This document shows, piece after piece, positions 2,157 through 57,829 of a DNA stretch of 58,690 bases. The stretch spans positions 1 through 58,690 of the forward strand of contig DATIYC010000066.1 in the NCBI GenBank assembly GCA_035517955.1, given 5' to 3'. Position 1 is the first letter of the stretch, and every line of letters begins with the position of its first letter. The translations under genes and the position numbers were made by a program. Below the pieces are notes generated by a model. That model was not told where the DNA came from and did no database searches. It saw nothing but the letters and a program-made list of their open reading frames with translations. Source of the stretch: Candidatus Acidiferrales bacterium. Lineage in GTDB: Archaea; Thermoproteota; Bathyarchaeia; 40CM-2-53-6.

Positions 2157-2164
2157 AGCCCTGA

Positions 2165-4789: not shown

Positions 4790-4801
4790 GGTTATCGGCA
4801 A

Positions 4802-5443: not shown

Positions 5444-5455
5444 AAAAAACCAAAG

Positions 5456-27647: not shown

Positions 27648-28877
27648 TTGCCGCCTACATCAGTAGACGTAGCCGTCGTCGGGTGCGGCGTTAGCGGCGC
27701 AACAGCTGGACTTGCCGCAACCCGGAGTGGAGCGACCGTCTCAGTTTTCGAGGAACACCCCGAAATCGGTATACCATCACATTGCTCCGGCCACGTTGGC
27801 ATCCAAGCCTTCAAAGAATTCAGCCCCTCAATCCCCTCCGATATAATTGAGAACAAGATCAAAGGCGCAGTGCTGCACCCCCCCTCCGCCAACCCCTTGA
27901 CATTGTCCAGATCATCCCCAGTAACCTGGGTCCTGAACCGCGCGAAATTCGACGCCCACCTCGCAGAATTGGCAAGCAAGAATGGTGCTAACATACAACT
28001 CAACTCCCGCATCGACAATTATAGACGCGAAGACGAAAGAATAAAACTCAGGATTTCCGGAGCGCAACAATTTGACGTTACGTGCCGTGTCCTAATTGAC
28101 GCTAGTGGATGCGCGGCCTCGATTGGAAAGTATGCCGGCCTCCCAAGACAAGGCAGAAAACTACTGGTGAACTCGGCTCAGTTCAGCGTCGAGAACTTGA
28201 AAGATGTTGACGAGGATTACGTGGAGGTTTATTTCGGTCAGCGGTTTGCTCCAGGCTTTTTCGGCTGGATTATTCCAAGGCGTGACGGGACGGCGAAGGT
28301 GGGGATAGCAGCAGGCGCGAGAACAAACGTTAGACACTGTTTTGAAAAATTCATTCGAAAACATCCCGTAGTCTCAGCGAAGATGAGACAAGCGAGACAG
28401 TTCTCTCCTATCGTGTTTCATCCTATACCGGTGGGAGGAGCAGCGAGTCGCACGTATGCCGATGGTTTGCTCGCTGTGGGTGACGCAGCTTCGCAGGTGA
28501 AGGCAACGACAGGCGGAGGCATCGTCTTTAGCTTACTCTGTGGGAAACTTGCGGGCGAAACAGCCGCCAACGCAGCAAAGGAAAGTAATGTTTCCGCTGC
28601 GAGGATGAGAAATTACGAGGATTCCTGGCGGCGAATGATTGGCTTCGACTTACGAACAATGTCCTGGTTACGTCGACTACTTTACAACCTTCCTGACAGA
28701 AATCTTGACAGGATCTTCACCATAGCAAATGAGTTGAACGTTGATCAGGTTCTGAACAGAACGGCAGACATCGATTTCCAGGGAAGAACGATACTATCCA
28801 TGGCACGTGACCCACGCATATTCTTCACTCTGCTATCGGCGTCCGTTCTCTCGGTTCCCTCACTGATTCGAACCTAG
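27648..28877 (+). CDS. Geranylgeranyl-reductase-family FAD-dependent oxidoreductase
   Basis: 409 aa with DVAVVGCGVSGATAG (a dinucleotide fold), PEIGIPSHCSG and GDAA motifs. Confidence 0.8.
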   Translation: MPPTSVDVAVVGCGVSGATAGLAATRSGATVSVFEEHPEIGIPSHCSGHVGIQAFKEFSPSIPSDIIENKIKGAVLHPPSANPLTLSRSSPVTWVLNRAKFDAHLAELASKNGANIQLNSRIDNYRREDERIKLRISGAQQFDVTCRVLIDASGCAASIGKYAGLPRQGRKLLVNSAQFSVENLKDVDEDYVEVYFGQRFAPGFFGWIIPRRDGTAKVGIAAGARTNVRHCFEKFIRKHPVVSAKMRQARQFSPIVFHPIPVGGAASRTYADGLLAVGDAASQVKATTGGGIVFSLLCGKLAGETAANAAKESNVSAARMRNYEDSWRRMIGFDLRTMSWLRRLLYNLPDRNLDRIFTIANELNVDQVLNRTADIDFQGRTILSMARDPRIFFTLLSASVLSVPSLIRT

Positions 28878-28924
28878 TGAAGAACTAGACACAGTGTTGC
28901 CGGAAGAATCCACTCGTGTTTCGC

Positions 28925-29902
28925 TTAGGATTTGCCTGACTGTTTCATTGCATCCGTTAATGCTGGAATCATCTCATACAGGTCAGCAACTACATTGTAG
29001 TCACTAAATTCGAATATAGGCGCCTTAGGATCATTGTTTACTGCGACGATCACGCGGCTTCCCCTGATGCCTGTAAGATGCTGAATTTGCCCAGAGATGC
29101 CGAGCGCGAAGTACAGCTTTGGGTTCACCTTCTGCCCTGATAAGCCGATGTATTGATCCTCAGGGAGCCACCTCAAATCCTCTGCAATGGGCCTTGAGCA
29201 GCCGATCACTCCGCCTACGTTTTTGGCAAACTGCTCAATCAGGGCCATGTCCTCCTTCTTTCTCACCCCACGCCCGAATGAAACTATTATTGACGCGTCG
29301 CTTAACTTCACGCCTTTTGCCGGCTTGGGTTTTGTTTCGATGAGTTTCGTGCTTGGAGGCTTGAATTTCGGGACCACCGCAATGACCTCACCCTTTCGAG
29401 ATGTATCTGCTGGAAGTTGTGAGAACAGTCCTTTGGGAATAGTAGCGATTAGTGGTTTCGCTTTCGAAGTCTGGGTCTCGGTCAAGTTACCGCCCATAGT
29501 TACCCGCTGCACTAGCAATGTCTTCTTGTCAGCGTCAAGCTCAAGCTTGGTCGCTTCGGTAACGCACCCAGTCTTGAGTCGCTCGGCTAAACGAGGGGCG
29601 AACTCTAACCCGTTTCGTGTAGCTCCGATTAAGATTGCGTCAGGTTTACGTTCGGTTGCTAAGTTAGCAAGGGTGTCGGTGTATACGTCTACTTGGAATT
29701 GGTTCAACGCTTGATCTGAGATTGCGAGGACTTTGTCTGCCCCCTGATGAACTAGTTTCTGCGCCTCTTCGCCCGAGGCTTTAGAAATTGCGACCAATTC
29801 AGCTCCACTATTGTTAGCTAGCTCTCTGCCTTTGCCGAGCAATTCGAGAAGGAGTTGAGGGGATTCAGAGAATACCCAGATTCCCTTGGCTTCTTGCGCC
29901 AT
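28925..29902 (-). CDS. etfA: Electron transfer flavoprotein alpha subunit
   Basis: 325 aa. The C-terminal FAD motif is YFALGISGQIQHLTG...VIVAVNNDPKAPIF. Confidence 0.9.
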   Translation of the reverse strand: MAQEAKGIWVFSESPQLLLELLGKGRELANNSGAELVAISKASGEEAQKLVHQGADKVLAISDQALNQFQVDVYTDTLANLATERKPDAILIGATRNGLEFAPRLAERLKTGCVTEATKLELDADKKTLLVQRVTMGGNLTETQTSKAKPLIATIPKGLFSQLPADTSRKGEVIAVVPKFKPPSTKLIETKPKPAKGVKLSDASIIVSFGRGVRKKEDMALIEQFAKNVGGVIGCSRPIAEDLRWLPEDQYIGLSGQKVNPKLYFALGISGQIQHLTGIRGSRVIVAVNNDPKAPIFEFSDYNVVADLYEMIPALTDAMKQSGKS

Positions 29903-29904
29903 CT

Positions 29905-30702
29905 TTAGTGCCCCTTCAAAACTCCTTCCTGTGCAAGCAGTGTAGCAAGTTTAGGAGCTATCTCCTTAGCCTGTCCTTGAAGCATCACTCTTTTTCGTTC
30001 TCCGACAGATACCGTGCTTCTGAGGATTTCGATTAATGATCCGTTGAAGCCTATCTCGTCAGCGGTGAGGTTCAGGTCGGCAGCGGTCCAAGTCTTCGTC
30101 GGTTTCTTCGACGCGGCCATAATAGCCATGAGGGTGGGAAGGCGAGGTTCATTGATCTCTCTTCCAACCGTAACTAAGCAAGGAAGCTTGCTTTCAACGG
30201 TCTGCCTCTCATCCTCCAGGTCTCTTTCCACTATTACCTTACCCGTCTCAAGGGACAGTTTGGCGGCATACGTTATCTGGGGTAAGTTGCAGATCTCGGC
30301 GATTCGTGGCCCAACTTGAAATGCAAAGGCATCTTCAGAGTATGCGCCGCAGAGGATTAGGTCATAGTCTAAGATCTTTGTAATTGCTGCAGCGAGTACG
30401 TTCGCGGTTGCGTGGGCATCTGAACCGTCGAACTGTGGATCGGTGATTAGGCAGGCCTCGTCAACGCCCATGGCAAGAGCTTCTCGCAAAGCCTCTTTTC
30501 CTTCTGGTGGCCCCATGCTTATTGCAGTAATCTTTCCACCATTCTTCTCTTTGATTCTAACAGCTTCCTCAATCGCGTTTTTGTCAGTTTCACTGATAAC
30601 CCTCGGCACACCTTGAGTTATGATACTCTTAGTGCTGCGGTCCACTTTCAGATCCGCGGTTTGAAGCACTTGTTTGACAAGTACAATTATGTTTGCCATC
30701 AC
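29905..30702 (-). CDS. etfB: Electron transfer flavoprotein beta subunit
   Basis: 265 aa with NIIVLVKQV, N..D.NAIEEA..IKE and DLILCG. It lies 2 nt upstream of etfA. Confidence 0.9.
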   Translation of the reverse strand: MMANIIVLVKQVLQTADLKVDRSTKSIITQGVPRVISETDKNAIEEAVRIKEKNGGKITAISMGPPEGKEALREALAMGVDEACLITDPQFDGSDAHATANVLAAAITKILDYDLILCGAYSEDAFAFQVGPRIAEICNLPQITYAAKLSLETGKVIVERDLEDERQTVESKLPCLVTVGREINEPRLPTLMAIMAASKKPTKTWTAADLNLTADEIGFNGSLIEILRSTVSVGERKRVMLQGQAKEIAPKLATLLAQEGVLKGH

Positions 30703-30752
30703 TCATCCCGGGAGAGTTCTTAGCTCAAACGCGCTATGCAATTAATACGTTA

Positions 30753-32768
30753 CTAGGCTTCAATCTGGTCTGCTACGAGTTCGGAAATGTCACGAACTGT
30801 TACCGCGTCCTTTGTTCCAGCCGAGACGCTGGCATCCTCAAGCATGGATGTGCAGAATGGGCATGCTGTAGCGATTATATTGGCTCCCGTTTGCTGAGCT
30901 TCTTCGAGGCGAATTGCATCCACTCTCTTCTTTTTCTCAACCTTGTACCAGAAGTTTGCACCCCCGGCCCCGCAGCAGAAGCTGTTTTCGCGGGAACGCG
31001 GCATTTCCCTTAGTTCCATACTTCCTAAGGAGGAAATTATGTTTCTGGGAGAATCAATTACTCCGTTGTAACGGGCCAAGTAGCAAGGGTCATGAAACGT
31101 TGCCAGCCCCTTTGATTGAGCTTTGAGTTTTAGTTTTCCAGTCGTCATCAATTGTTCTATGAATTGCGTGTGATGAACCACTGTGAAGTCACCCCCAAAT
31201 TCCGGGTATTCGTTTTTGAAAGTGTTGTAGCAGTGTGGGCATTGGGTGAGGACAGTTTTCACGTTATACTTCTTGAAGACCTCTACTAGTTCCAGTGCGC
31301 TCTGCTGGAAACGCCCTTCTTCTCCCAACCGCCTGGCTACTTCACAGTTACATTTCTCCTCCGTCCCTAGAACTGCGAAACTGACGTTTGCGGCCTTGAG
31401 GATTTTAGCGATGGCTCGTGATACGTTCTGGTTTCGAGGATCGTAGGAGCCGGAACATCCAACCCAGTATAAGACCTCAAAGTTAGGTTGTTGTTGGGCG
31501 GTTTTGACGTCTAGTCCTTCTGCCCACTTCATTCGATCGGCCTGGGGGAGTCCGTATGGGTTTGAAACATTGTTCAAATTGTTCAGCAGATCCCTTTTGC
31601 CTCTGTCGAGTTTTCCTTCGGCGATCAAGTGTCTTCTCATATCAACGATCGAGTCTACGTGGTCGATTAGGACGGGACACTCGTTAACGCATGCCCTGCA
31701 CGTGGTGCAAGCCCAAAGCTCCTCTGGATTGACAATGTCGGGGATTACGAGGCTTCCTCCATCAGCGTGACTTTGAGCCAACATCACGTTTCTCAATTTC
31801 AGTATCAGGTGCATTGGTGAAAGAAGTGTGCCAGCGGCCGTAGCTGGGCACGCGTTTGTGCACCGTCCGCATTGAGTACATGAGTCGAAAGATAATCGTT
31901 GTTGCCAGGAGAAATCACCAATGGTTGCGGCTCCGACCTTAACATCGAAACTTCCAGTAGCCAAAACTTGCCTTAGGTCGAAAGGCGTGCTCAATTGCCC
32001 TTTGGGTCTCTGATGTGCAAAGAGCGCGTTTAGTGGTGAGGTGAATAGGTGGAAGAGTTTCGTGTATGGTATGCTTGCCACTCCAATGAAAGCCAGTAGA
32101 GCGTGGAACCACCATAAGTACTGATAAAACGTAACAGTCCCGGGTCCGACCAGGCCTTGGCTGGTTAGGTAGAGCGCGACTCGGTATCCGACGAAAGACC
32201 ATGGAGCCCATGGCGGCTTATCAACAGCTAACCTGATACCCTCCAGTAAATAGCCCGTAGGCAAAATGATGAGCAGAATTGTGAAGATGAAAACGTCATC
32301 GCGAGAGGTTGGAAGATTCGATGGACGCGAAATCGCCCTTCTGACTAGAGCAATGATGAGTCCGGCTATAGCCACCAAGCCGAAAGCGTCCAGGAAAAAC
32401 TCGAAGGACAAGTAGAAATTCCCGATCAGAAACTGGTGATGGAAGAGAGGCTGCCAGAAGTCATTATCCGTCATTACGAGAGTTGTTCCAATAAAGAGCA
32501 CTAGTATGCCGCTGTAGATCAGCAGATGCATGATACCGGGATAAGTCTTCTTTACAACCTTTCGCTGCGCAAAGGCGTTAACAACCGCTCTCCTAACCCG
32601 CTCCTGAATTTGGTCGAATTTTGGTGGTGCCGATCCGCGGAAGTAGACTCTTAAGCGCCTGTAGAAGCCATAAACGAATGCGACTGCGAAACCGGACATG
32701 ATTGCGTACATGAAAAGGTATGTTAGCGGAGGCATGAGGTCGTAGGTTATGCGGTGCGGCTCGGACAA
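30753..32768 (-). CDS. Membrane-bound FeS oxidoreductase: NarI/HdrE-like TM domain fused to an HdrD/GlpC-like 2x[4Fe-4S] + 2xCCG domain
   Basis: 671 aa with an N-terminus of about 6 TM helices. Cluster motifs are CTQCGRCTNACP and CTTCRACVNECP. The cysteine-rich CCG-type motifs are CPHCYNTF, CCGAGG and CPFC. Confidence 0.8.
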   Translation of the reverse strand: MSEPHRITYDLMPPLTYLFMYAIMSGFAVAFVYGFYRRLRVYFRGSAPPKFDQIQERVRRAVVNAFAQRKVVKKTYPGIMHLLIYSGILVLFIGTTLVMTDNDFWQPLFHHQFLIGNFYLSFEFFLDAFGLVAIAGLIIALVRRAISRPSNLPTSRDDVFIFTILLIILPTGYLLEGIRLAVDKPPWAPWSFVGYRVALYLTSQGLVGPGTVTFYQYLWWFHALLAFIGVASIPYTKLFHLFTSPLNALFAHQRPKGQLSTPFDLRQVLATGSFDVKVGAATIGDFSWQQRLSFDSCTQCGRCTNACPATAAGTLLSPMHLILKLRNVMLAQSHADGGSLVIPDIVNPEELWACTTCRACVNECPVLIDHVDSIVDMRRHLIAEGKLDRGKRDLLNNLNNVSNPYGLPQADRMKWAEGLDVKTAQQQPNFEVLYWVGCSGSYDPRNQNVSRAIAKILKAANVSFAVLGTEEKCNCEVARRLGEEGRFQQSALELVEVFKKYNVKTVLTQCPHCYNTFKNEYPEFGGDFTVVHHTQFIEQLMTTGKLKLKAQSKGLATFHDPCYLARYNGVIDSPRNIISSLGSMELREMPRSRENSFCCGAGGANFWYKVEKKKRVDAIRLEEAQQTGANIIATACPFCTSMLEDASVSAGTKDAVTVRDISELVADQIEA

Positions 32769-35852: not shown

Positions 35853-36797
35853 TCAAGCAGGTATTGTAACTTCTTTTTGCTCTTCCAAGTATGCGAGAGC
35901 GTCTAGGGCGGCTTTGCAACCTTCCCCAGCAGCTGTCACAGCCTGCCGATACTTGTGGTCGTGCACATCGCCTGCAACGAAAACCCCGCGTACACTTGTC
36001 TCCGTCACATTTCGAGTGACCGTGTACCCTTTTTCGTCGAGTTCGATCTGGCCCTTGAAGACCTTCGTGTTAGGCTCGAAGCCTATTGCTACGAAGACGC
36101 CGTCGCTGGCAATTATTGAGACTTCGCCTGTCTTGACATTTCTGACCTTGACTCCCTCAACTTTCTGATCTCCAGAAATTTCCTCGACAACTGAATTCCA
36201 CACGAACTTGATCTTGGGGTTGGCCATGGCTCTCTTCTGCATGATCTTGCTAGCACGAAGCACCTCGCGCCGGTGGATAACACTCACTTCGCTCGCATAC
36301 TTGGTCAGGAAGAGAGCTTCCTCAATTGCCGTGTCTCCTCCTCCAACCACAACCACGCGTTTGCCCCTGAAGAAGTAACCATCACAAGTGGCGCAGCTTG
36401 AAACTCCACGACCCCTCATTCTAACCTCCGATGGCAGCCCTAACCATTTTGCCGACGACCCAGTGCTAATAATCACGGCCTTCGACGAGTACGATTTTCC
36501 AGCGACTTTGATCTGGAAAGGATCATTCGAGAAATCAACTGATTCCGTATCCTCGTCAATAATCTTGGCCCCGAATCGTTCGGCTTGTTTTCGCATTTCC
36601 TGCATCAGAACCGGGCCCTGAATACCGTCGGGGAAACCCGGGAAATTCTCAACCCCGCTTGTAAGCATTAATTGTCCGCCTGAAAGACGCCCACCAATAA
36701 CCAATGTGTTGAGTAGTGCCCGGCCAGTGTAGATCGCGGCCGTCAGACCTGCGGGACCAGATCCAACGATTATCACGTCGTAATCGTAATCTGCCAT
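35853..36797 (-). CDS. trxB: Thioredoxin-disulfide reductase
   Basis: 314 aa with DVIIVGSGPAG, redox-active CATCDG, and GGGDTAIEEA. Confidence 0.92.
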   Translation of the reverse strand: MADYDYDVIIVGSGPAGLTAAIYTGRALLNTLVIGGRLSGGQLMLTSGVENFPGFPDGIQGPVLMQEMRKQAERFGAKIIDEDTESVDFSNDPFQIKVAGKSYSSKAVIISTGSSAKWLGLPSEVRMRGRGVSSCATCDGYFFRGKRVVVVGGGDTAIEEALFLTKYASEVSVIHRREVLRASKIMQKRAMANPKIKFVWNSVVEEISGDQKVEGVKVRNVKTGEVSIIASDGVFVAIGFEPNTKVFKGQIELDEKGYTVTRNVTETSVRGVFVAGDVHDHKYRQAVTAAGEGCKAALDALAYLEEQKEVTIPA

Positions 36798-36889: not shown

Positions 36890-37387
36890 TTAGGCTTCTC
36901 GCAGATATCCATTCTTCGCCTCAGTGTGCATTGGTTTTCCAATGTAAATTACGATTGTTCGCGAGAGACGATTGAACAGCCGCTGCCGTAATGGTCTACA
37001 GGGCGAATAGATCCAACCTATCAAACAGTCCAGTGGAAGAAGCAGCGACTTTCCTATACTCTGCACCGCGGCTGATCGGAGACTCGCATTTCGTCCGCCT
37101 GCCTCAACGAGCCTCAAGTTGAGCAAGAGCTGTCCTATTGATCTTCCAACGTACCATTCGGATAGCGTCCAGTAGAGGAAGAAGATTAGAACAGATAGTG
37201 GGGACCAGATTGAGATATCGGACCCGGGCAGTTTTGGTAGTAGAAATTGAGGGATGAGTTTGGTTTCTAGGGATTCGAGGTTGAAGTAGGCGAGCAGGGA
37301 ATTGACGATCAAGTAGTCAATGAACCATGCTATGAAACGTCTGCCCCAATTAGCTAGAATAGGCGTGTCGGCCTGAGACCCGCTCAT
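36890..37387 (-). CDS. RDD-family membrane protein
   Basis: 165 aa with A.WGRRF.A..ID and three hydrophobic segments. Confidence 0.65.
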   Translation of the reverse strand: MSGSQADTPILANWGRRFIAWFIDYLIVNSLLAYFNLESLETKLIPQFLLPKLPGSDISIWSPLSVLIFFLYWTLSEWYVGRSIGQLLLNLRLVEAGGRNASLRSAAVQSIGKSLLLPLDCLIGWIYSPCRPLRQRLFNRLSRTIVIYIGKPMHTEAKNGYLREA

Positions 37388-37419: not shown

Positions 37420-38490
37420 TTACTTTCGTTTCTTTGTTGGTCGGCCGCCCATCACCATTGCCATGACGGCTTTCTGAACATGGAGACGGTCCTCTGCCTG
37501 TTCGAAGTAGAGTGAGTAGTTCATGTTGTCGATTACTTCGTCGGTGACTTCTTGTCCCCGGTCTGCAGGTCCGCAATGTGTGTACTTGCCATGGTTTGTT
37601 AGGTCCATCATTTCTTGCGTACAGATCCAGTCCTTGAACTTGTCTTGGTAAGTCGTGGCTCCTGTTTTATCCACTGCGTTGCTGTGCGGCGGCAGGTAGC
37701 CCTTTGGAGACCATGCCTTGGGATAGACAACATCTGCGTCCTCGAAAGCCTCTTTCATGTTGTTTACTACTTTGAATCCTCCACCGTATCTGTCGGCGTT
37801 GGCTTTGGCGGCGTCGGTTACTACATCTTCGAGTTCGAAACCTGGAGGGTGTGCCAAGACGACGTCCATGCCCATCTGAGTTCCTATCAGAATCTCACTC
37901 TGTGGAACGGCGAGTGGTTTGAGGCCCCCTGAGTAGGCGTAGGAGACTACGAGCCTTTTTCCCTGGAGTTTCGGTATCGCTGCTCTCATAGCTTGCGCAT
38001 CCGCGAGCGCCTGAAACGGGTGATACATGTCATCCTCCATATTCAGAACGGGTATCGTAGCATGTTTGGCGAATTCTTGGACGACCTTGTGTCCCCTCCC
38101 GATGATCCATTTCGCGGCGTCTCCGTAAATGCGAATTGCAATGGCGTCACCGTATCGGCTTAGAACGCGAGCTACGTCCGAGATGGCCTCGGTTTGGTAG
38201 GCAACCATGTCTTCAGGTAAGGCTGGCGTGTAGACGTCCTGTGGGCTGAGAAAGTGCGCGTGCCCCCCAAGCTGGTACATGCCAGCTTCGAATGAGTTCC
38301 TCGTTCTGAGCGAACGGTTATAGAACATCATGAAAAGTGTTTTTCCGGGCAGGTACTCATGTTTCCTGCGTGCCCGAAACTGCTTCCTTAACTCGTCCGC
38401 AGCATTTAGGATCTTCTTGACTTCTTCTTGCGAGAAGTCGTTGGTATCAAGGAAATGTTTGCCGCTCCATAAACCTACGAAAGAAACCAA
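37420..38490 (-). CDS. YgeW-like (AOTC/SOTC-like) carbamoyltransferase, variant motifs
   Basis: 356 aa with SLRTR (in place of STRTR), HPFQALAD, PLAVPQSE, VVYPKAWSP, KDWICT and HCGP. It has no DxxxSMG ornithine loop. A TTG start is preceded by a GAGGGG SD-like element. Confidence 0.8.
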   Translation of the reverse strand: MVSFVGLWSGKHFLDTNDFSQEEVKKILNAADELRKQFRARRKHEYLPGKTLFMMFYNRSLRTRNSFEAGMYQLGGHAHFLSPQDVYTPALPEDMVAYQTEAISDVARVLSRYGDAIAIRIYGDAAKWIIGRGHKVVQEFAKHATIPVLNMEDDMYHPFQALADAQAMRAAIPKLQGKRLVVSYAYSGGLKPLAVPQSEILIGTQMGMDVVLAHPPGFELEDVVTDAAKANADRYGGGFKVVNNMKEAFEDADVVYPKAWSPKGYLPPHSNAVDKTGATTYQDKFKDWICTQEMMDLTNHGKYTHCGPADRGQEVTDEVIDNMNYSLYFEQAEDRLHVQKAVMAMVMGGRPTKKRK

Positions 38491-38557
38491 ATTTGCATAC
38501 CCCTCTTTTTCGATAGTTTTTGGGAATCTGACTTAAACCTTGGCTTTTATGCTTGCA

Positions 38558-39511
38558 TTAAACCTTAGGCGCGACTATGTGGGTGCCTGCCTTGTTCTCA
38601 AGTGCTTCAGTTAACTTCCCGAGAGATGCGATTATGGCCTGATCGCCTCCGCTTTCGACAAAACGTATCGCAGCCTCTATCTTTGGTGCCATGCTTCCTT
38701 CTTTGAATTGGCCGTCCTTCAAGTAGTTCTTCAGCTTCCCTGTACTGATCTCAGTGATTAACTCCTGTTTGGGCGTCCCGTAGTTCACGTACGCCCCTTC
38801 CACATCAGTCAAGACAACGAAAATATTCGCCCCGATCAGGGTTGCTAGCCTCTGTCCCGCCAAGTCCTTATCGATAACAGCCTCAACGCCGACTGCTTTG
38901 TCCTCCTCCTCGATTATTGGTATCCCTCCCCCGCCGCAAGCGACGACAATGAACCCCGAATCGACCAGCGCTCTGATTGCTAGGCGTTCAGCAATTATCT
39001 TCGGGTCAGGCGAGGCCACCACGCGCCTAAACCCTCGCCCAGCATCCTCCTTTACGACCAGTTCCGGTCTTTGTTGTTGGATCTTCTCCGCCTCCTCCTT
39101 AGAATAGAAGGGACCTACTGGTTTCGTTGGATGCTGAAACGCTGAATCATGTTTGTCGACGATCACTCTGGTTATCACCGTGACGACGAATTTGTCGACT
39201 CCTCGCGACTTCAACTCGTTCCGCAACGCCTGTTGTATCATGTAGCCAATGAAACCTTGAGTTTCAGCGCCGCATGCATCGAGTGGGAAAGGTGGAACGA
39301 TGTTCTTTGCCGCCTCGTGCCTGAGCATTGTTGCGCCAACTTGTGGCCCGTTACCATGAACCAGGACCATTTTGTGCCCACGCTCTATAAGATCAGCCAT
39401 TTTCGCCACGGTGGACTTAACGTTCTGATATTGTTCCTCGAAGGTACCCTTTTGCCCCCGTTGCAGAAGGGCGTTGCCGCCAAGTGCAATCACTATGAGA
39501 TTTTCGACCAA
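38558..39511 (-). CDS. arcC: Carbamate kinase
   Basis: 317 aa with IALGGNAL, VHGNGPQVG, ACGGGGIP, IDKDLA and MAPKIEAA. Confidence 0.92.
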   Translation of the reverse strand: MVENLIVIALGGNALLQRGQKGTFEEQYQNVKSTVAKMADLIERGHKMVLVHGNGPQVGATMLRHEAAKNIVPPFPLDACGAETQGFIGYMIQQALRNELKSRGVDKFVVTVITRVIVDKHDSAFQHPTKPVGPFYSKEEAEKIQQQRPELVVKEDAGRGFRRVVASPDPKIIAERLAIRALVDSGFIVVACGGGGIPIIEEEDKAVGVEAVIDKDLAGQRLATLIGANIFVVLTDVEGAYVNYGTPKQELITEISTGKLKNYLKDGQFKEGSMAPKIEAAIRFVESGGDQAIIASLGKLTEALENKAGTHIVAPKV

Positions 39512-39602
39512 TCACAAGCCCTCAATTGAATTGAAGAACGAAAAATCATCCGGTTTGACCTTATCAACTTTCACAGTCTTTTCAACGCAAGCGGAGGAAA
39601 TC

Positions 39603-39637
39603 ATATTTACGAGGTCAATTTCCTGTTTCAAAACAGG
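39603..39637 (+). promoter_or_regulatory. TATA-like box plus 7-2-7 palindrome upstream of carbamoyltransferase 2
   Basis: ATATTTA lies at 39603-39609. CCTGTTT-CA-AAACAGG lies at 39622-39637, ending 8 nt before the TTG start at 39646. Confidence 0.35.
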
Positions 39638-39645
39638 TAAACGAG

Positions 39646-40677
39646 TTGCCTAAAGTTGACCTTACTGGCAGAGACCTGATTACGACCCAAGATTGGTCAA
39701 TGGAGGAGCTGCAAACCACTCTAAAACTTGCAGCCGAATTCAAAACTAAATACCACAAGGGCACAGTGCCCCCTCTTCTTCGAAACAAGACATTCTTCGC
39801 CCTTTTCTATGCTCCATCAACTAGAACGAGAGCGGCTTTCGAGGCTGGGATGACCTACCTTGGCGGCCACGCGCAGTACATCGACGTATCAACGACGCGC
39901 CTCGGCTCTGGGGAGGCTCCGAAAGATGTCGCGAAGATGTACGAAAAATACGGGCATGGGCTCGGGGTCAGAATCTTGGATTCCGCAATAGATTACGTCA
40001 GCGGCGCAGGAGTTTCCGTAGTCCGTGAATACGCAAGGCACGCCGAAATCCCTGTCATTAACATGGCTTGTTGTACATATCATCCCACACAAGGTCTCGC
40101 TGATTTAATGACAACGCAAGAATCGTTCGGTCGACTTCGCGGTAAGAAGTACGTGATAATGTGGGGTTACGCTAGAAGCTTCCGGGGTCGATGCAGCATA
40201 CAAGAGGAGGCGCTGATAATGCCTCGGTTTGGAATGGACACGATACTAGCTCACCCGCCTGGTTTCGAGATTGACTCCGAGATTCTTCAGCAAGCGAAAG
40301 CGAACGCAAAGGAATCAGGGGGAACGTTCGAAGTCACGAATGACCTGAATTCGGCTCTGGACGGAGCGAACGCGGTTTTTCCAAGAAATTGGGCTTCGAA
40401 CGCGTTACTAACAGTGGGAGCTGGTAAGTTTGGAAAAGATCGGGAATTAGAATTGCATGAGAAACATCGGGATTGGATGTTGACTGAGAGAAGATTGGAT
40501 AAGATGGATAAGAAGGCTATAGTGACGCATGTTCTGCCGGCTCTTCGTGGGGAAGAGGCCAGCGATGAAGTGATGGATGGCCCGCACTCAGTGATTTACC
40601 CCCAAGCAGAGAACGGCATGTATACGAAAATGGCGGCAATGGCGCTTACGATGGGCGGAAAGAAGAAACGGACCTGA
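39646..40677 (+). CDS. YgeW-like carbamoyltransferase (second, divergent paralogue)
   Basis: 343 aa with STRTR, HPTQGLADL, AVFPRNWAS, RDWMLT and HVLP. It has no SMG loop. It shares the basic C-terminal tail MGG(K/R)..KKR with 37420-38490. Confidence 0.82.
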   Translation: MPKVDLTGRDLITTQDWSMEELQTTLKLAAEFKTKYHKGTVPPLLRNKTFFALFYAPSTRTRAAFEAGMTYLGGHAQYIDVSTTRLGSGEAPKDVAKMYEKYGHGLGVRILDSAIDYVSGAGVSVVREYARHAEIPVINMACCTYHPTQGLADLMTTQESFGRLRGKKYVIMWGYARSFRGRCSIQEEALIMPRFGMDTILAHPPGFEIDSEILQQAKANAKESGGTFEVTNDLNSALDGANAVFPRNWASNALLTVGAGKFGKDRELELHEKHRDWMLTERRLDKMDKKAIVTHVLPALRGEEASDEVMDGPHSVIYPQAENGMYTKMAAMALTMGGKKKRT

Positions 40678-42361: not shown

Positions 42362-43828
42362 TTGATTGATCTTACCATAAATGAAAAAGGACTCCAGAGA
42401 ACCGTTCAGGCTTGTAGAAGTAGAAACATAATCATACCCACATTTTCTCAACTCAAAGCCCCGGAGAGTACCCCTGAGAAAATTAAGGGAGAATTAAGAA
42501 ACACAAGTCTTTGGGATATAGCACCACAGAACTTATTCCGAATCACATGGAAGAATGACCCCGCTGCCAAAGGCGGGCTCTTTCGCCCAATCGCAAACTA
42601 CCTAGAGCTACCACCAGAACTTACTGGCGTTGAGGCACGCATAATTGCCCTGGTTGGGAAATGGTTCCCTACAGGATCGCACAAAGTTGGAGCATCTTTC
42701 GGTTGCTTAGTGCCCCCCCTTGTCACTGGCCAGTTTGACCCAACGGTGCATAAAGCCGTCTGGCCTAGCACAGGAAACTTTTGCAGAGGAGGAGCCTACG
42801 ACGCGAAACTACTCGGTTGCGATAGCATCGCCATTCTTCCAGAGCAAATGTCACAGGAACGTTTCCAATGGCTCAGAACTGTTGCAAGCGAGATAATTGC
42901 CACGCCCGGAAGCGAAAGCAATGTGAAAGAAATCTATGACAAGGTCTGGGAACTAAGAGGCACGCGCAAGGATATTTTCGTATTCAACCAATTTGCTGAG
43001 TTCGGAAACTACCTGTTTCACTACGAAGTAACAGGGCACGCAATGCAGGAAGTTATCAACAAAGAGATTAGCGGGGGACAATTTCGCGGAGTATGTTTAA
43101 CCACTGGATCGGCAGGAACAATCGCCTCCGGCGACTACCTCAAGCAAGCTTACCCCACATCGAAGATCGCAGCTGGAGAAGCCGCCCAGTGCCCGACTCT
43201 CCTACTCAACGGATATGGCGTCCACAGGATTGAAGGAATCGGTGACAAACATGTACCGTGGATACATAACATAAGAAACACGGACATAGCGATTGGAATC
43301 GACGACAATGATCCGATGAGCTTGATGAGGCTTTTCAACGAACCAACAGGACGGGAATACCTCATTCGCGAAATAGGCGTTCCAGAAGAATTGGTTTCCA
43401 AACTTGACCTACTTGGCATTTCCAGTATAGCAAACGTGCTCATGGCGATTAAATTCGCGAAGTACTTTGAATTAACACGCAAAGACATCGTCATCACCGT
43501 GTTTACTGATTCTATGGAGTTGTACCAATCGAGACTGAAAGAGTCAAGAGAACAGCACCCTCAATACGGCAAAGAGCAAGCGGACAGCGATTTCCACAGG
43601 CACCTCATGGCGATAAAAACAGACTCAATGATGGAACTCACCTATCCAGACAGAAAGAGAATTCATAACCTAAAGTACTTCACGTGGATTGAACAACAGA
43701 AAAGTGACCTGAACGAATTGAACCGCCAATGGGACGACTATGAAGCCTATTGGAGCGGAATCCAGAAACTGACGCCAAGAATAGACGACCTCATAACAGA
43801 ATTCAACCGAAAAGTTGGATTGATCTAA
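42362..43828 (+). CDS. Fold-type II PLP-dependent enzyme, unassigned (TrpB/CysK superfamily; lyase/thiolase-like)
   Basis: 488 aa with FPTGSHKVGASF (candidate PLP lysine), STGNFCRGGAY and TTGSAGT. It has a long helical C-terminal extension. Confidence 0.65.
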   Translation: MIDLTINEKGLQRTVQACRSRNIIIPTFSQLKAPESTPEKIKGELRNTSLWDIAPQNLFRITWKNDPAAKGGLFRPIANYLELPPELTGVEARIIALVGKWFPTGSHKVGASFGCLVPPLVTGQFDPTVHKAVWPSTGNFCRGGAYDAKLLGCDSIAILPEQMSQERFQWLRTVASEIIATPGSESNVKEIYDKVWELRGTRKDIFVFNQFAEFGNYLFHYEVTGHAMQEVINKEISGGQFRGVCLTTGSAGTIASGDYLKQAYPTSKIAAGEAAQCPTLLLNGYGVHRIEGIGDKHVPWIHNIRNTDIAIGIDDNDPMSLMRLFNEPTGREYLIREIGVPEELVSKLDLLGISSIANVLMAIKFAKYFELTRKDIVITVFTDSMELYQSRLKESREQHPQYGKEQADSDFHRHLMAIKTDSMMELTYPDRKRIHNLKYFTWIEQQKSDLNELNRQWDDYEAYWSGIQKLTPRIDDLITEFNRKVGLI

Positions 43829-44039: not shown

Positions 44040-45392
44040 TTGACGCTCATGGTTCAAACGGCTGAGCGAGAAGACGTTGTAAGTTTAACGAAGCAGCATA
44101 CGTACGGGACATGGCGGGCGCAAAAAAGTTGGATTCCTCGAGAGGTTGTGAGTGCAGAAGGATGCTACTTCAAGGACGCTTCGGGTCAAGAATTCCTGGA
44201 TTTCTCGTCACAATTAATGTGCTCGAATCTGGGCCACGGTAACAAAGCGGTTATTGACGCAATATGTGAACAAGCTAGGAAGCTTCCCTACGCTGCCCCA
44301 GGCTTCACAACTGAAGCACGAGCGAAACTCACGGCAGCATTGGCAGAGGTCATGCCACATGGTTTGGAGAAATTTTTCTATGCTACGTCAGGAACTGAAG
44401 CAAATGAAGCTGCATTCAAAATTGCTAGGCAATTCACAGGCAAGTACAAAATAATCTCAAGATATGCATCATACCATGGCTCAACGGCGGGTTCGATAGC
44501 TGCTACCGGCGACCCTCGCCGATATCCAATTGAACCTTCAGGAAAAATGGAAGGTGTTCTATTCGGACCTGACGCATACTGCTATCGCTGTCCATTCGGA
44601 TTGAAGTATCCCGACTGTGGTATTGCATGCGCAGACTACTTGGAATACATGATTAAGCATGAATCCAACGTCGCAGCCGTCATCGTAGAACCTGTTGTAG
44701 GCACGAACGGCGTCATTGTCCCGCCTGACGAGTACTTGCCGCGTCTTCGTGAAGTCACCGAGGAAAACGATGTCTTACTGATCTGTGACGAAGTCATGTC
44801 TGGCTGGGGACGAACTGGTGAATGGTTCGCGGTTAATCATTGGAAAGTCAAGCCTGATATCCTAACGACCGCAAAGGGTGTCACTGGGGCGTATGTTCCG
44901 CTGAGTGTTACCGCAACAACTCGCAACATCTCTGACTATTTCGAGGAACATTACTTTGCTCACGGTCATACGTATGAAGCTCATCCAATGACTCTCGCGC
45001 CGGGAATTGCTGCGATTAGTGAGTACAAGCGATTGAACCTCATCGAGAGGGCACGAACAATGGGACAATATACGGGGAAGAAACTTACGGCTCTCCAAGA
45101 GAAGCATCCGTCGGTTGGAGATGTACGCGGAATAGGCTTATTCTGGTCACTAGAGCTTGTAAGAAACAGGAACAATAAAACGCCCTTCAACACCGGCGAG
45201 GAGAAACTTCAAGGTAAACCAATGGTCTCGGACGGGGTTGCCGCAGAATGCATGAAGAATGGCACTTACGTAATGTCGTGGCTCAATTACATGATAATTG
45301 CTCCACCATTGATAGTCACGCCCGAAGAGATCGACAAAGGCGTTGCCGCCCTTGACAAAGGACTGACGGTCGCTGACAAAGAAGTCGTCTAA
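44040..45392 (+). CDS. Class III (omega-type) aminotransferase
   Basis: 450 aa with SGTEANE, CDEVMSGWGRTG and TTAKG (PLP lysine). Confidence 0.85.
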   Translation: MTLMVQTAEREDVVSLTKQHTYGTWRAQKSWIPREVVSAEGCYFKDASGQEFLDFSSQLMCSNLGHGNKAVIDAICEQARKLPYAAPGFTTEARAKLTAALAEVMPHGLEKFFYATSGTEANEAAFKIARQFTGKYKIISRYASYHGSTAGSIAATGDPRRYPIEPSGKMEGVLFGPDAYCYRCPFGLKYPDCGIACADYLEYMIKHESNVAAVIVEPVVGTNGVIVPPDEYLPRLREVTEENDVLLICDEVMSGWGRTGEWFAVNHWKVKPDILTTAKGVTGAYVPLSVTATTRNISDYFEEHYFAHGHTYEAHPMTLAPGIAAISEYKRLNLIERARTMGQYTGKKLTALQEKHPSVGDVRGIGLFWSLELVRNRNNKTPFNTGEEKLQGKPMVSDGVAAECMKNGTYVMSWLNYMIIAPPLIVTPEEIDKGVAALDKGLTVADKEVV

Positions 45393-45422: not shown

Positions 45423-46814
45423 TCAAGTGTAACTCCACTTAGACTTGACGCTGATCCCAGCTCTTTCAAGTAGCCTCGCAGCTCTTGCGTTAGCCTCCTG
45501 TATGATCGCACTTTCGTTAAGTGTCCTTATCTGACCGCGCGCCATCAGAATTTTCCCATCCACAATTACCGTATCAACGTCAGAGCCCTCACCAGAATAG
45601 ACGAGGTGAGAAATTGGATTCAGGGTCGGTGTCAGGTGCGGACTATCTAACCGAACTATAGCCAAATCAGCCTTCTTCCCGACCTCTAGAGAACCAATTT
45701 CATTATCCAATCCTAACGCCTTGGCTCCGTTAATTGTCGCCAACTCAAGTACGTCTTCCGCGCTCATGACAATGGGATCGTATAATCTCACTTTTTGAAT
45801 CAGTGATGCGAGTTTCATTTCACGGATCATATCATAGCAGTTGTTACTTGGACCCCCATCGCAACCTAGGCCAACGTTTACGCCATGCTTGATCATTTCA
45901 GGTACGGGTGCAATCCCAGAAGCTAATTTCGTGTTGGAGGATGGGCAGTGGGCCACTGTTGCGCCCTTTGCGGCTAGTATTTTCCACTCCTTTTCAGCCA
46001 ACCAGACTCCATGCGCGAAGACAACCTTCGGTCCCATCACCCCTACTTGATCCATGAACTCAGCAGGCAGTTTCGCGAACTCCTTGTTTGCGTATTTTAC
46101 GTCCTCTTGGACTTCGCCGAGATGCATCGTGATACCGATTTTGAGTCGTTTGGCACCCTCCGCGATTCGGCTGTACAGTTCGGGTGTACACGCTCCTAGT
46201 GAACGAGCCCCATACCATACCTGTACCCGTCCACCCGCTTTACCATTCCAACGATTGTAGTAGGTCTCGACTTCGCGAAGGCATGTTTCCGCATCCTCGA
46301 TCATGCCCCTGTGCATGATGCTCTTCTCCGTTCCATAGCTAGGCATGCCCATCACAGTCTTTGAAAGAATTCCGCGCATTCCTGACCGTTCAACAGCCTT
46401 CGCGATTCCATCGAACCCATAGCGCGTGTGCAGGAGGCTTTCTAGGAAAGTGGTTGTCCCAGATTTGATCATCTCTAGCATGCACAATTCAGCGCTCACT
46501 CTTCCGTCCTGCGCGTCGAAATTTCCTTGGAGTGGCCAAACGAATTTCTGAAGCCAATCAATCAATGAGGTGTCATCCGCGCAGCCGCGGATTAGGGCTT
46601 GAGCGAGGTGAACATGAGTATCAATCAGCCCTGGTAGCACAATCTTCCCGGTGGCATCAATTTCGAATTCTGCACGACTTCTAGGCCTTACCTCATCTAC
46701 CTTTCCGATTAGCGATATGCCGCTGTCTTCTATGAGAATGGCGCCATCTCGAATTACTCGTCGATGGGCATCCATAGTGATTATGGTTCCGCCCTTTATG
46801 AGAACTGTCGACAT
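45423..46814 (-). CDS. COG0402 amidohydrolase/deaminase (MTA/SAH-, guanine- or SsnA-like)
   Basis: 463 aa with PGLIDTHVHLAQ, TMHLGE, FAHGVW and LGCDG. Confidence 0.85.
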   Translation of the reverse strand: MSTVLIKGGTIITMDAHRRVIRDGAILIEDSGISLIGKVDEVRPRSRAEFEIDATGKIVLPGLIDTHVHLAQALIRGCADDTSLIDWLQKFVWPLQGNFDAQDGRVSAELCMLEMIKSGTTTFLESLLHTRYGFDGIAKAVERSGMRGILSKTVMGMPSYGTEKSIMHRGMIEDAETCLREVETYYNRWNGKAGGRVQVWYGARSLGACTPELYSRIAEGAKRLKIGITMHLGEVQEDVKYANKEFAKLPAEFMDQVGVMGPKVVFAHGVWLAEKEWKILAAKGATVAHCPSSNTKLASGIAPVPEMIKHGVNVGLGCDGGPSNNCYDMIREMKLASLIQKVRLYDPIVMSAEDVLELATINGAKALGLDNEIGSLEVGKKADLAIVRLDSPHLTPTLNPISHLVYSGEGSDVDTVIVDGKILMARGQIRTLNESAIIQEANARAARLLERAGISVKSKWSYT

Positions 46815-47706: not shown

Positions 47707-49248
47707 ATGACAAGCGAACCGACGGCTTTTGTTAGGAAGGCTTCAGGTCTCCGAAGAGACGTTTCGTTACTGGATGTAGTTAGTCTAAACCTCAGCAACA
47801 TGTCCGGAGGAGCAGCTCTCGGAACCATCGGATTCACTACAGTGCTTCTCACGTCGATGTCTGGGGTGAACTTGGTATACGGTTCGATACTCGCATGGTT
47901 CCTAACGATTCCGGAAGTCGTTGTTTATACTATGATGACGTCTCGAGTGAGTCGGACTGGAGGAGATTACGTGTGGGTTTCGAGAGTCTATGGCGGAGCA
48001 TTCGGTGGACCCCTCTCGTTCATGGGATACACAATCGAGACTATGGCCTACATGGCACTCATCGCCTTAGCCGCGGTAACGGCAATCGGATCCGTTGGGG
48101 TGTCGCTTGGTTACTCTAACATGCTCCAGTTCGCGCTGCCCGGAAACCTTCCCGGCGCCAACTTGGCTGGCCAATTCGCTATAGCAGCCATCATTTTCGT
48201 CGTACTTATCGCTGCTAACATGCTCAAACCAAAACTGGGCTTCAAGATCGTTGCAATCGCAGTGCTGATTGCAATAGTTGCAACGTTTGTTGGAATCTTC
48301 TCTCTCCTGGCCGCCGGGACCAACGGCGTACAAGGGTACATGAGTTTCCTTAACTCGATCGGAGACAACACAACGTATACTGCAGTCGCAAACTCTTACA
48401 CCGGCCCAACGTTCGACTTTGGTGCAACTATCTTTATGCTGCCCTTCTTTGCCATCTTCGTTTATCCATGGCTAAATGCCGGCCCTGCAGTGGCCTCCGA
48501 AATCAAAGGTAAGTCCGCACTCAAGTATAACGTGGCAATCTCATCCGTCGTAAGCCTCATAATCGTAACATCGGCATTCGCGGCCATGTACTACGCCGGG
48601 GGTTTCAACTTCATCAATGGCGCATTATCCAACCCGGGCCTCGTATACGACTGGTCCTTCAACTTCTGGACCCTGGCGATGGGAGTTTCCAGCACACCTG
48701 TAGCTTGGTTCATTGGATTAGGGTGGATATTATGGAACGTCGCTGTCATTGCCTATGCGATCATCGTCCTATCTCGCTATCTCTTCGCCCAATCATTCGA
48801 CCGCTTCTTGCCGGAAAAAATCTCCTACGTCAGCAAATATGGCTCACCCACGGTAGCGTTTACGATTAACCTAGTCTGCACCTTGGTGCTAATTGCGCTC
48901 GCGTCATTCTTCTATGGAACCCTAGTGTCCCTATACGGAGCCGTCATTGCCTCAATGATTTACTTCTTCTTCATCGGAATAGCGGCCGTACGCTACGCAA
49001 TCAAGAACGAGAAAGGAACCTCAAAGGGCATCTTGGCTACGGCTGGCCTCCTAATGACGATCGTCTTCGCGTATATAACATACCAATTCATCGCATACTA
49101 TACAATCTGGGGAGGAACATTGCTTGGGACAGGATGGGCTGTTGGCAGCTTCATTGTTGGAGTTGCAATTTACTTCATCTCGAAATCGTACTACGGCAAA
49201 CGCGGAATCGATATAACTCTGGCGTACAAAGAACTACCACCCCTATAA
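47707..49248 (+). CDS. APC-superfamily permease
   Basis: 513 aa with about 12 or more hydrophobic helices. The N-terminal pattern is typical of amino acid/polyamine/organocation transporters. Confidence 0.75.
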   Translation: MTSEPTAFVRKASGLRRDVSLLDVVSLNLSNMSGGAALGTIGFTTVLLTSMSGVNLVYGSILAWFLTIPEVVVYTMMTSRVSRTGGDYVWVSRVYGGAFGGPLSFMGYTIETMAYMALIALAAVTAIGSVGVSLGYSNMLQFALPGNLPGANLAGQFAIAAIIFVVLIAANMLKPKLGFKIVAIAVLIAIVATFVGIFSLLAAGTNGVQGYMSFLNSIGDNTTYTAVANSYTGPTFDFGATIFMLPFFAIFVYPWLNAGPAVASEIKGKSALKYNVAISSVVSLIIVTSAFAAMYYAGGFNFINGALSNPGLVYDWSFNFWTLAMGVSSTPVAWFIGLGWILWNVAVIAYAIIVLSRYLFAQSFDRFLPEKISYVSKYGSPTVAFTINLVCTLVLIALASFFYGTLVSLYGAVIASMIYFFFIGIAAVRYAIKNEKGTSKGILATAGLLMTIVFAYITYQFIAYYTIWGGTLLGTGWAVGSFIVGVAIYFISKSYYGKRGIDITLAYKELPPL

Positions 49249-53477: not shown

Positions 53478-53631
53478 TAGTATTGCGCAGACAAGTAATC
53501 ATTGAGTTCAATCAACGAGAAGCAACGCAACCTGAAGAATGCGGTTCGTGAGAGTACCTGGTGAATGGTTAAGAGTGACGCGTTTAAGCTCCCGTAAAGC
53601 TTACCAAACTTTGCTTGTAGGAGTAGTTGCG

Positions 53632-57807: not shown

Positions 57808-57829
57808 AAAATAGTTGCGACGATTTGAC

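Follow-up and report, generated by a model that had tools for sequence, protein, structure and literature searches.

What two carbamoyltransferases encoded on either side of a carbamate kinase gene might do in an archaeon is the question raised by positions 37420–40677 of contig DATIYC010000066.1 (assembly GCA_035517955.1, deposited as Candidatus Acidiferrales bacterium and placed in the Bathyarchaeia by GTDB). The whole stretch of DNA analyzed (58,690 nt, forward strand), apparently the entire contig, is referred to below as the window; the closest homologs of its proteins likewise carry the name Bathyarchaeia. This group, whose energy conservation is poorly known, ranks among the most abundant archaea of anoxic sediments and peat. 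The current database name of the transferases, ornithine carbamoyltransferase (OTC), points to arginine or urea-cycle metabolism. The results presented here favor, with a probability somewhat above one half, a different general mechanism, in which the three genes would serve to cleave ureido groups and to gain ATP within an archaeal form of the reductive 2,8-dioxopurine pathway. The module consists of the following elements:

37420–38490 (−): T1, carbamoyltransferase of the knotted branch, in a clade placed weakly as sister to YgeW; 356 aa, OTCace_N and OTCace domains
38558–39511 (−): carbamate kinase (CK), arcC/YqeA type; 317 aa, TIGR00746
39512–39645 (no strand): intergenic region between the divergent CK/T1 and T2 genes; 134 nt
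39646–40677 (+): T2, second knotted-branch carbamoyltransferase, in a clade of its own; 343 aa, OTCace_N and OTCace domains

Organization of the module

The three genes are intact and lie where an earlier note on this DNA had placed them. The note's estimate, made by eye, of about 35–40% identity between the two transferases agrees with the computed value (37% over 348 residues), as does the 134-nt gap reported between the divergent CK and T2 genes; the gap between CK and T1 is 67 nt, not 68 nt. The kinase, described in the note as canonical, is indeed a full-length arcC equivalog (TIGR00746 score of 432.2 bits, cut-off 358.25), sharing 45.5% identity with YqeA of Escherichia coli. Enzymes of this family convert carbamoyl phosphate and ADP to ATP, CO2 and NH3.

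The module was compared with approximately 90 related loci of archaea and bacteria (designated L001 and so on; gene-label counts were made on 80 loci, and 22 loci carry T1). CK is present in 56 of the 80 loci (labeled by best BLAST match). Within the 134-nt intergenic region, the block TTAT(C/G)AACTTTCA is shared with two other loci of Bathyarchaeia, L001 and L003, and possibly serves as a promoter or regulator site. The TTG start codon of T2 is aligned with ATG in L001. A scan for sigma-70 promoters and terminators near the module gave counts close to those expected from shuffled sequences, the sigma-70 model being uninformative for an archaeon.

T1 and T2 score below the OTC, AOTC, PTC and YgeW cut-offs

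Both proteins scored below the cut-offs of the models for (i) OTC (TIGR00658/NF001986: 230.8/231.3 bits for T1 and 206/199 for T2; cut-offs 280.85/306), (ii) AOTC (NF003384: 272.9 and 198.3, respectively; cut-off 288), (iii) PTC (TIGR04384: 202.2 and 182.7, far below the cut-off of 500) and (iv) YgeW (TIGR03316/NF005538: 157.9/163.7 for T1 and 130.5/136.4 for T2; cut-offs 500/453). The best NCBIfam match, sub-cut-off in each case, was AOTC for T1 (272.9 bits) and OTC for T2 (206 bits).

T1 and T2 were then aligned with ArgI, PyrB and YgeW of E. coli, OTC of P. furiosus and AOTC of X. campestris. The carbamoyl-phosphate site is present in T1 (SLRTR, R106, HPFQ and HCGP) as well as in T2 (STRTR, R106, HPTQ and HVLP); the position of OTC R319 is occupied by G in archaeal T2. 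The residues that bind ornithine in OTC are lost: N167 is replaced by A (T1) or C (T2), and D231 by K (T1) or R (T2). The DxxxSMG ornithine/putrescine loop (D231, S235, M236), reported as missing in the earlier note, is absent from both proteins. The residues determining the specificity of AOTC are also changed (E92 to T in T1 and G in T2; W77 to T and L, respectively; K302 to E in both), with the equivalents of E144 and K252 retained in T1.

Eight residues of YgeW were proposed by Shi et al. (2015) to contact its second substrate: Q98, D124, Q160, S200, K203, K270, D334 and E344. T1 retains K203, K270, D334 and E344, whereas its positions 98, 124, 160 and 200 are occupied by Y, K, E and G; T2 retains D124, S200 and E344, its positions 98, 203 and 270 being R, position 160 A and position 334 L. 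T1 also resembles YgeW in its KP[LI]xVPQ loop and HCxPAD motif. It differs from YgeW in its low overall identity (33.5%), in its sub-cut-off scores and in the absence of the additional helices at both termini and of the 240s-loop insertion, which are missing from the alignment of T2 as well. T2 is characterized by its CSIQE loop and by an Arg within the 80s loop, and it has no proline-rich loop. An extended 120s loop is found in both proteins, and the proline-rich loop KPLAVPQ in T1 alone.

The knotted-branch motifs that the earlier note had assigned to both transferases are thus those of T1 (YPKAW, KDW..T, KPLAVPQ), the corresponding segments of T2 being FPRNW, RDW..T and RGRCSIQE. Similarly, the term “YgeW-like” suits the pocket residues of T1, but neither protein is a member of the YgeW family and T2 falls in a different clade. 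The basic C-terminal tails noticed in the two proteins (MGGRPTKKRK and MGGKKKRT) are present as described; they are absent outside close Bathyarchaeia relatives, the proteins of L006, L013 and L004 ending differently, and the tail was rejected as a functional feature on these grounds. The identification of T2 as a diaminopropionate carbamoyltransferase (DPTCase) was likewise rejected: T2 has no HDLP or (T/S)RWQTTG motif and belongs to the wrong branch.

The closest match of T1 in the PDB by sequence is AOTC, and OTC of P. furiosus is also among the closest structures. AlphaFold models (pLDDT of 76 for T1 and 73.5 for T2, with low-confidence loops in the N-terminal domain) were matched with Foldseek, and the predicted folds of both are nearest to AOTC (TM 0.80–0.87 for T1 and 0.75–0.79 for T2). 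The AOTC of Xanthomonas campestris (PDB 3kzc and others) thus shares with T1 and T2 the extended 120s loop and the closest fold; it differs from them in residues E92, W77 and K302, and no arginine-biosynthesis context is seen around either transferase. Taken together, the motifs and scores predict that T1 and T2 are active carbamoyltransferases, yet not members of the OTC, PTC, AOTC or YgeW families.

Phylogeny

A neighbor-joining (NJ) tree was constructed from 133 carbamoyltransferases of the related loci plus references. Bootstrap values were obtained from 300 replicates with 47 sequences (NJ, Kimura-corrected distances); the tree contained no PTC, SOTC, DPTCase or UGTCase sequences. Such placement had been proposed as a check in the earlier note, and it assigned both proteins to the knotted AOTC/YgeW branch, as two clades, and not to the OTC branch. 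The whole knotted branch (T1, T2, YgeW with its Anaerolineae relatives, and AOTC) received 100% support, the T1 clade 91% and the T2 clade 99%. True AOTC homologs (L068, L078) form a clade of their own (100%). YgeW groups with a YgeW-like clade of Anaerolineae, termed AnaT (74%), and T1 joins these two with 62% support, which weakly suggests that T1 is sister to YgeW. A sister grouping of T1 and T2 received 0%.

The window carries a purine-catabolic island

In the reductive pathway studied in 2025 in E. coli and Clostridium sporogenes (PMC12507026; 10.1101/2025.04.24.650524), urate is converted to 2,8-dioxopurine by XdhD or XdhAC (PMC12507026; 10.1101/2025.04.24.650524; PMC12990295) and then to its dihydro form by YgfK or UacX. 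SsnA yields ureidomethylhydantoin and HyuA 2,3-diureidopropanoate, from which YgeW releases carbamoyl phosphate, used by YqeA to make ATP, and a mono-ureido intermediate. The latter is hydrolyzed by YgeY to diaminopropanoate, which YgeX converts to pyruvate (PMC12507026; 10.1101/2025.04.24.650524). Substitution of the ring reductase by an F420-type luciferase-like (LLM) protein was proposed for Chloroflexota by Li et al. (PMC12507026).

Everything in the window beyond about 36 kb is regarded as a purine-catabolic island, because this part encodes, among others, an adenine deaminase, xanthine dehydrogenase (XDH) homologs, an LLM protein and an amidohydrolase. In addition to the module, it contains:

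35853–36797 (−): thioredoxin reductase, membership of the module uncertain; TIGR01292, 410 bits (cut-off 343)
36890–37387 (−): small membrane protein of the RDD family; PF06271, 49.6 bits
40915–42168 (−): threonine-synthase-like (ThrC-like) pyridoxal phosphate (PLP) enzyme with an N-terminal Cys-rich extension; NF006050, 318 bits (cut-off 303)
42362–43828 (+): divergent CysK-like PLP enzyme, 488 aa, partner of the ThrC-like enzyme; PALP domain, 46 bits; matches PDB cysteine synthases
44040–45392 (+): class-III aminotransferase, membership doubtful, position not conserved in related loci; PF00202, 290 bits, below all NCBIfam cut-offs
45423–46814 (−): amidohydrolase of the TRZ/ATZ, SsnA and guanine-deaminase group; Amidohydro_1, 274 bits
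46918–47619 (−): isochorismatase-family cysteine hydrolase; PF00857, 160 bits; biuret amidohydrolase model weak (83, cut-off 370)
47707–49248 (+): permease of the amino-acid/polyamine type; PF13520; AA_permease also in L001 and L002
49397–50374 (−): metallophosphoesterase; PF14582; also in the island of L001
50628–52424 (+): adenine deaminase (adenine to hypoxanthine); TIGR01178, 552 bits (cut-off 472.5)
52446–53477 (−): LLM F420-type oxidoreductase; PF00296, 226 bits; matches to Mer-like and F420 LLM models, none reaching its cut-off
53539–54117 (+): XDH-family 2Fe-2S subunit; Fer2, Fer2_2; 47% identity to E. coli XdhC
54039–54998 (+): XDH-family FAD subunit; FAD_binding_5, CO_deh_flav_C; 34% identity to XdhB
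55347–57554 (+): XDH-family molybdopterin subunit; Ald_Xan_dh_C, MoCoBD_1, MoCoBD_2; about 30% identity to both XdhA and XdhD
57815–58690 (+): start of the FAD subunit of a second XDH paralog, cut by the window end; 28% identity to E. coli XdhB (E value 6e-36)

The XDH-family molybdenum hydroxylase typical of 2,8-dioxopurine clusters is represented by the set at 53539–57554 and by the paralog beginning at position 57815; the molybdopterin subunit scored 605 with the pucD model (cut-off 784). Two XDH sets are also found in L006, and such a pair would fit a xanthine dehydrogenase plus a 2,8-dioxopurine-forming enzyme. Among the ring reductases of these clusters (YgfK, UacX with PF01180, or an F420 LLM protein with PF00296), the LLM type is encoded at 52446–53477, and its product is a candidate 2,8-dioxopurine reductase acting in place of YgfK or UacX.

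The amidohydrolase may be either a guanine deaminase or a ring-opening equivalent of SsnA. It scored 444 with the DadD model (cut-off 522) and 226/214 with TIGR03314/NF005540, the models for the pathway marker SsnA (cut-offs 444/455). Its identity is 31% with the SsnA-like protein of L006, and 27% and 25% with GuaD and SsnA of E. coli, respectively. The isochorismatase-family protein is possibly an amide or ureido hydrolase.

The ThrC-like protein, which matches PDB threonine synthases (4e-64), is a candidate for handling the C3 diamine product. Its CysK-like partner is 32% identical to a 350-aa CysK-like protein encoded after T1 in other archaea, and 40–67% identical to the product of the gene beside the ThrC-like gene in Anaerolineae clusters. 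As a pair, the two proteins of the window are 52–67% identical to their Anaerolineae homologs, compared with 39% (ThrC-like) and 32% (CysK-like) for the other archaea with the module (loci compared: L001, L009 and L031–L088). This higher identity suggests that the sub-module was exchanged between Chloroflexota and Bathyarchaeia.

No HyuA, YgeY or YgeX homologs are encoded in the window. As claimed in the earlier note, arginine and agmatine deiminases are also lacking nearby: no such domain was detected among the window ORFs (open reading frames) of at least 130 aa or in the precomputed Pfam lists of the related loci.

The locus resembles the YgeW/YqeA system in that a knotted-branch transferase adjoins a carbamate kinase (45.5% identical to YqeA, as noted above) amid XDH paralogs, an amidohydrolase of the SsnA/guanine-deaminase group and a putative ring reductase. 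It differs from that system in the presence of a second transferase, in the lack of YgeY and YgeX homologs, in having ThrC-like/CysK-like enzymes and an F420-type LLM protein as proposed replacements of YgeX and YgfK, and in its archaeal host.

Related loci in archaea and bacteria

A scan of GTDB species genomes revealed T1 in Nitrososphaerales, Caldarchaeales, Desulfurococcales, Thorarchaeota, Chloroflexota and Thermoanaerobaculales; across Thermoproteota, its sequence is 61–89% identical. In other Bathyarchaeia, the genes are arranged as thioredoxin reductase–RDD–T1–CK, followed by T2 and by ThrC-like–CysK-like–amidohydrolase genes together with a Bmp nucleoside ABC transporter (the latter in L001). 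The RDD and thioredoxin reductase genes occupy the same place downstream of T1 in Bathyarchaeia loci L001–L003 and L009.

Several loci bring the module together with further purine genes. Within 21 kb of L006 are encoded adenine deaminase, XDH, T1–CysK-like–ThrC-like, a second XDH, T2, an SsnA-like protein, an LLM protein and CK. This SsnA-like protein scored 366 (SsnA cut-off 444), which is below the cut-off but nearer to it than the amidohydrolase of the window. L004, from a metagenome-assembled genome (MAG) named “Nitrososphaerota”, contains PNP, CK and T1–CysK-like–ThrC-like genes, a racemase-family gene, a hydantoinase-like amidohydrolase and T2, and L012 (Caldarchaeales) contains T1, LLM, SsnA, ThrC-like, HyuA and adenine deaminase genes. 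Adenine deaminase homologs occur in 16 of the 80 loci, including L006 and L012, SsnA homologs in L012, L013 and L015, and HyuA-like genes in L004 and L012. The LLM gene, which is also found in L006, adjoins SsnA in L012 and L021.

In Desulfurococcales L013 and L015, the order (T2)–T1–CK–SsnA is followed by a gene for a DHO_dh protein with two 4Fe-4S clusters, the architecture described by Li et al. for UacX of C. difficile (PMC12507026). These UacX/PydA-like proteins are encoded at 13622–14836 of L013 and at 16088–17335 of L015, directly after SsnA. Since LLM proteins occur in some archaea and the UacX type in Desulfurococcales, different archaea would use different ring reductases. A separate genuine OTC (DxxxSMG, HCLP) adjoins T1 in Desulfurococcales L014 and L015. 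No arg genes flank T1 or T2 in the approximately 90 loci, and purine genes do.

T1, T2 and CK form tight operons, in this order, in bacterial and Thorarchaeota loci (the gap between T1 and T2 in L025 is 1 nt). T2 accompanies T1 in 11 of the 22 T1 loci, and a YgeY homolog in none of them. YgeX is likewise absent from all 80 loci; a ThrC-like gene is present in 42 and a CysK-like gene in 29, often after CK, and their products probably process the C3 diamine. The two genes lie as a pair beside the transferase and CK genes in both archaea and Anaerolineae (L001, L004, L006, L031 and others).

A second type of arrangement was observed in Anaerolineae. There, the slot upstream of the YgeW-like gene is occupied by YgeY (16 loci), by a third transferase, T3 (23 loci), by both (5) or by neither (12). 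T3 is ATCase-like (a “pseudo-ATCase”): it scored 238.6 with the ATCase model (cut-off 236.95), it matches ATCases in the PDB and it carries HSLP, the signature motif of UGTCase. It is found in 28 Anaerolineae loci within L042–L083 (e.g. L064, 8908–9909) and not in the window. The alternation of a hydrolase and a second transferase in one slot is the main comparative argument for T2 performing the YgeY step, and suggests that YgeW-like protein plus T3 could be a second, independent two-transferase solution.

A proposed route from purines to ATP

In the pathway that we propose, purine bases would be funneled by adenine deaminase, an amidohydrolase of the guanine-deaminase/SsnA type and two molybdenum hydroxylases. 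The ring would be reduced by the F420-type luciferase-like reductase or, in Desulfurococcales, by the UacX-like flavoprotein, and opened by SsnA-type and hydantoinase-type amidohydrolases to give 2,3-diureidopropanoate. T1, as the counterpart of YgeW, would cleave one ureido group with phosphate, releasing carbamoyl phosphate, and T2 would phosphorolyze the remaining one, replacing the hydrolase YgeY of E. coli. CK would turn both carbamoyl phosphates into ATP, CO2 and NH3, so that two ATP would be gained per purine instead of one. The leftover 2,3-diaminopropanoate would be handled by the ThrC-like/CysK-like PLP enzymes standing in for YgeX.

The substrates, the catabolic direction, the ureido group taken by each enzyme and the ATP yield are predicted here from sequence and gene context. 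The earlier note had postulated two catabolic transferases with two ureido substrates, linked through CK to substrate-level phosphorylation. The missed family cut-offs, the two separate clades and the purine context support this view, and the substrates, which the note had left unnamed, can now be narrowed: given the match to the 2,8-dioxopurine context and the fact that 2,3-diureidopropanoate has exactly two ureido groups, these groups become the candidate substrates of T1 and T2.

The narrower proposal, namely that T1 and T2 turn the two ureido groups of a single 2,3-diureidopropanoate into carbamoyl phosphate and hence into two ATP, is advanced more tentatively than the general mechanism, its chance being rather less than even. 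In this tentative form it would extend over Bathyarchaeia, Caldarchaeales, Desulfurococcales, Thorarchaeota and Hadarchaeota, with the F420 reductase and the ThrC-like/CysK-like enzymes replacing YgfK and YgeX.

Several observations weigh against the proposed route. Purine genes lie within 10 kb in only 9 of the 22 T1 loci. T1 orthologs carry the names Desulfurococcus amylolyticus, Thermosphaera and Staphylothermus, and the “Desulfurococcus amylolyticus” T1 on MAG contigs L090/L091 is solitary, with no CK, T2 or SsnA within 10 kb; its neighbors encode an NTPase of the ITPase/XTPase family (NTPase_I-T), a PGM/PMM-family mutase and a CitMHS transporter. An ArgE/DapE-type M20 hydrolase is encoded near the module of L001, and this enzyme, or the isochorismatase-family hydrolase of the window, could hydrolyze one of the ureido groups. 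A clear SsnA ortholog, a hydantoinase, a racemase and an M20 hydrolase were not found in the window, so that either the rest of the pathway is encoded elsewhere in the genome or the pathway differs. Only 62% of the NJ bootstrap replicates group T1 with YgeW, in a tree that leaves PTC, SOTC, DPTCase and UGTCase outside. Phosphorolysis of a ureido group is thermodynamically unfavorable (PMC12507026). Finally, the two published studies disagree on the ureido group attacked by YgeW (PMC12990295), which means that the division of labor between T1 and T2 is not assignable.

Alternative explanations

The best surviving alternative, although unlikely, is that T1 and T2 serve separate nucleobase or ureide pathways, both feeding a shared CK: T1 would act on diureidopropanoate, and T2 on N-carbamoyl-beta-alanine or the corresponding beta-aminoisobutyrate compound (pyrimidine breakdown), on allantoate or on oxalurate. 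The Bmp ABC transporter and PNP indicate that nucleosides in general are imported at related loci, the dihydropyrimidinase, allantoinase and dihydroorotase assignments of the L004 hydantoinase-like protein have equal scores, and the UacX-like architecture is shared with clostridial PydA. The class-III aminotransferase of the window could take beta-alanine, but it is not conserved across the related loci. Moreover, translational adjacency of T1 and T2 within a single operon with CK is common, neither a dihydropyrimidine dehydrogenase gene nor allantoin genes were observed next to the two transferases, and the alternation of YgeY with a second transferase in Anaerolineae fits one common pathway. 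Formation of allantoin by uricase requires oxygen, which is not available to these anaerobes, and this counts against the alternative. A carbamoyltransferase acting on allantoate nevertheless has a precedent (PMC4016543).

Less probable still is an anabolic or urea-cycle module, in which CK would supply carbamoyl phosphate (as does a CK-like enzyme of Pyrococcus) and T1, T2 or both would be unusual ornithine or N-acyl-ornithine carbamoyltransferases of arginine synthesis. Public annotation names the proteins OTC or AOTC, AOTC and the P. furiosus OTC are the closest solved structures, T1 has the equivalents of E144 and K252, its 61–89% conservation across classes is housekeeping-like, and the copy named Desulfurococcus amylolyticus lies outside a purine cluster. 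On the other hand, T1 and T2 miss every curated OTC and AOTC cut-off and lack N167, D231 and SMG of OTC and E92, W77 and K302 of AOTC; purine genes, not arg genes, flank them in the approximately 90 loci, and a genuine OTC stands beside T1 in L014 and L015.

The arrangement of CK beside a carbamoyltransferase is the classical arcBC/aguBC layout, yet phosphorolysis of citrulline or carbamoylputrescine by a catabolic OTC or PTC, with CK making ATP and the deiminase encoded elsewhere, is very improbable, given PTC scores of 202 and 183 (cut-off 500), the missing OTC signature residues, the placement of T1 and T2 in the knotted and not the OTC branch (bootstrap 100%) and the failure to find a deiminase domain in the window or the related loci.

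Comparison with other carbamoyltransferase–kinase systems and implications

The proposed purine module shares with the arginine and agmatine deiminase pathways (OTC or PTC plus CK) the general scheme in which a ureido compound and phosphate give carbamoyl phosphate and then ATP. It is distinguished from them by the clades and substrate-binding residues of its transferases and by the deiminase not being found. A closer functional precedent is UGTCase of Rubrobacter xylanophilus, which has an adjacent carbamate kinase and phosphorolyzes allantoate, a diureido acid, in purine catabolism (PMC4016543). Allantoate is the lower homolog of diureidopropanoate, and its cleavage is likewise coupled to carbamate kinase. 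Unlike UGTCase, T1 and T2 belong to the knotted branch, the UGTCase-like T3 being found in Anaerolineae clusters and not in the window. Two transferases in one purine cluster had been seen earlier in Nocardioides, in which a pseudo-ATCase gene lies beside a ygeW homolog and xdhABC (PMC4016543).

On this reading, the module is an archaeal counterpart of the YgeW/YqeA ATP module that employs two transferases, and no archaeal example precedes it in the literature searched. Neither of the 2025 studies mentions archaea or two-transferase clusters (PMC12507026; 10.1101/2025.04.24.650524). No earlier description in Bathyarchaeia was found in the literature searched, the single match concerning Hydrogenophaga.

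If the proposal is correct, these archaea gain ATP by fermenting purines of nucleic-acid debris, bacteria are not the only hosts of the 2,8-dioxopurine pathway described in 2025, and two clades of carbamoyltransferases receive a substrate prediction. The amount of energy gained from the pathway would then appear tunable, from no ATP when both ureido groups are hydrolyzed (as proposed for C. difficile) to one with YgeW and YgeY (E. coli) and two with two transferases. The two-transferase solution would also seem to have arisen at least twice, as T1 plus T2 and as the YgeW-like plus UGTCase-like pair of Anaerolineae.

Other features of the window

Three further features were recorded upstream of the island:

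78–198 (−): tRNA gene, 121 nt; Rfam 38.7 bits, not reported by ARAGORN; probably an intron-containing archaeal tRNA
927–6040 (+): riboflavin cluster (lumazine synthase, GTP cyclohydrolase III, RibD_C, a creatininase-family ArfB-like protein, riboflavin synthase and a flavoprotein)
27648–32768: geranylgeranyl-reductase-like flavoprotein, two subunits of an electron-transfer flavoprotein (ETF) and an HdrD/TfrB-like membrane Fe-S protein of 671 aa that contains CCG domains

The riboflavin cluster includes an extra gene for a 411-aa amidohydrolase (2165–3400), and the genes at 27648–32768 may encode an electron-transfer complex.

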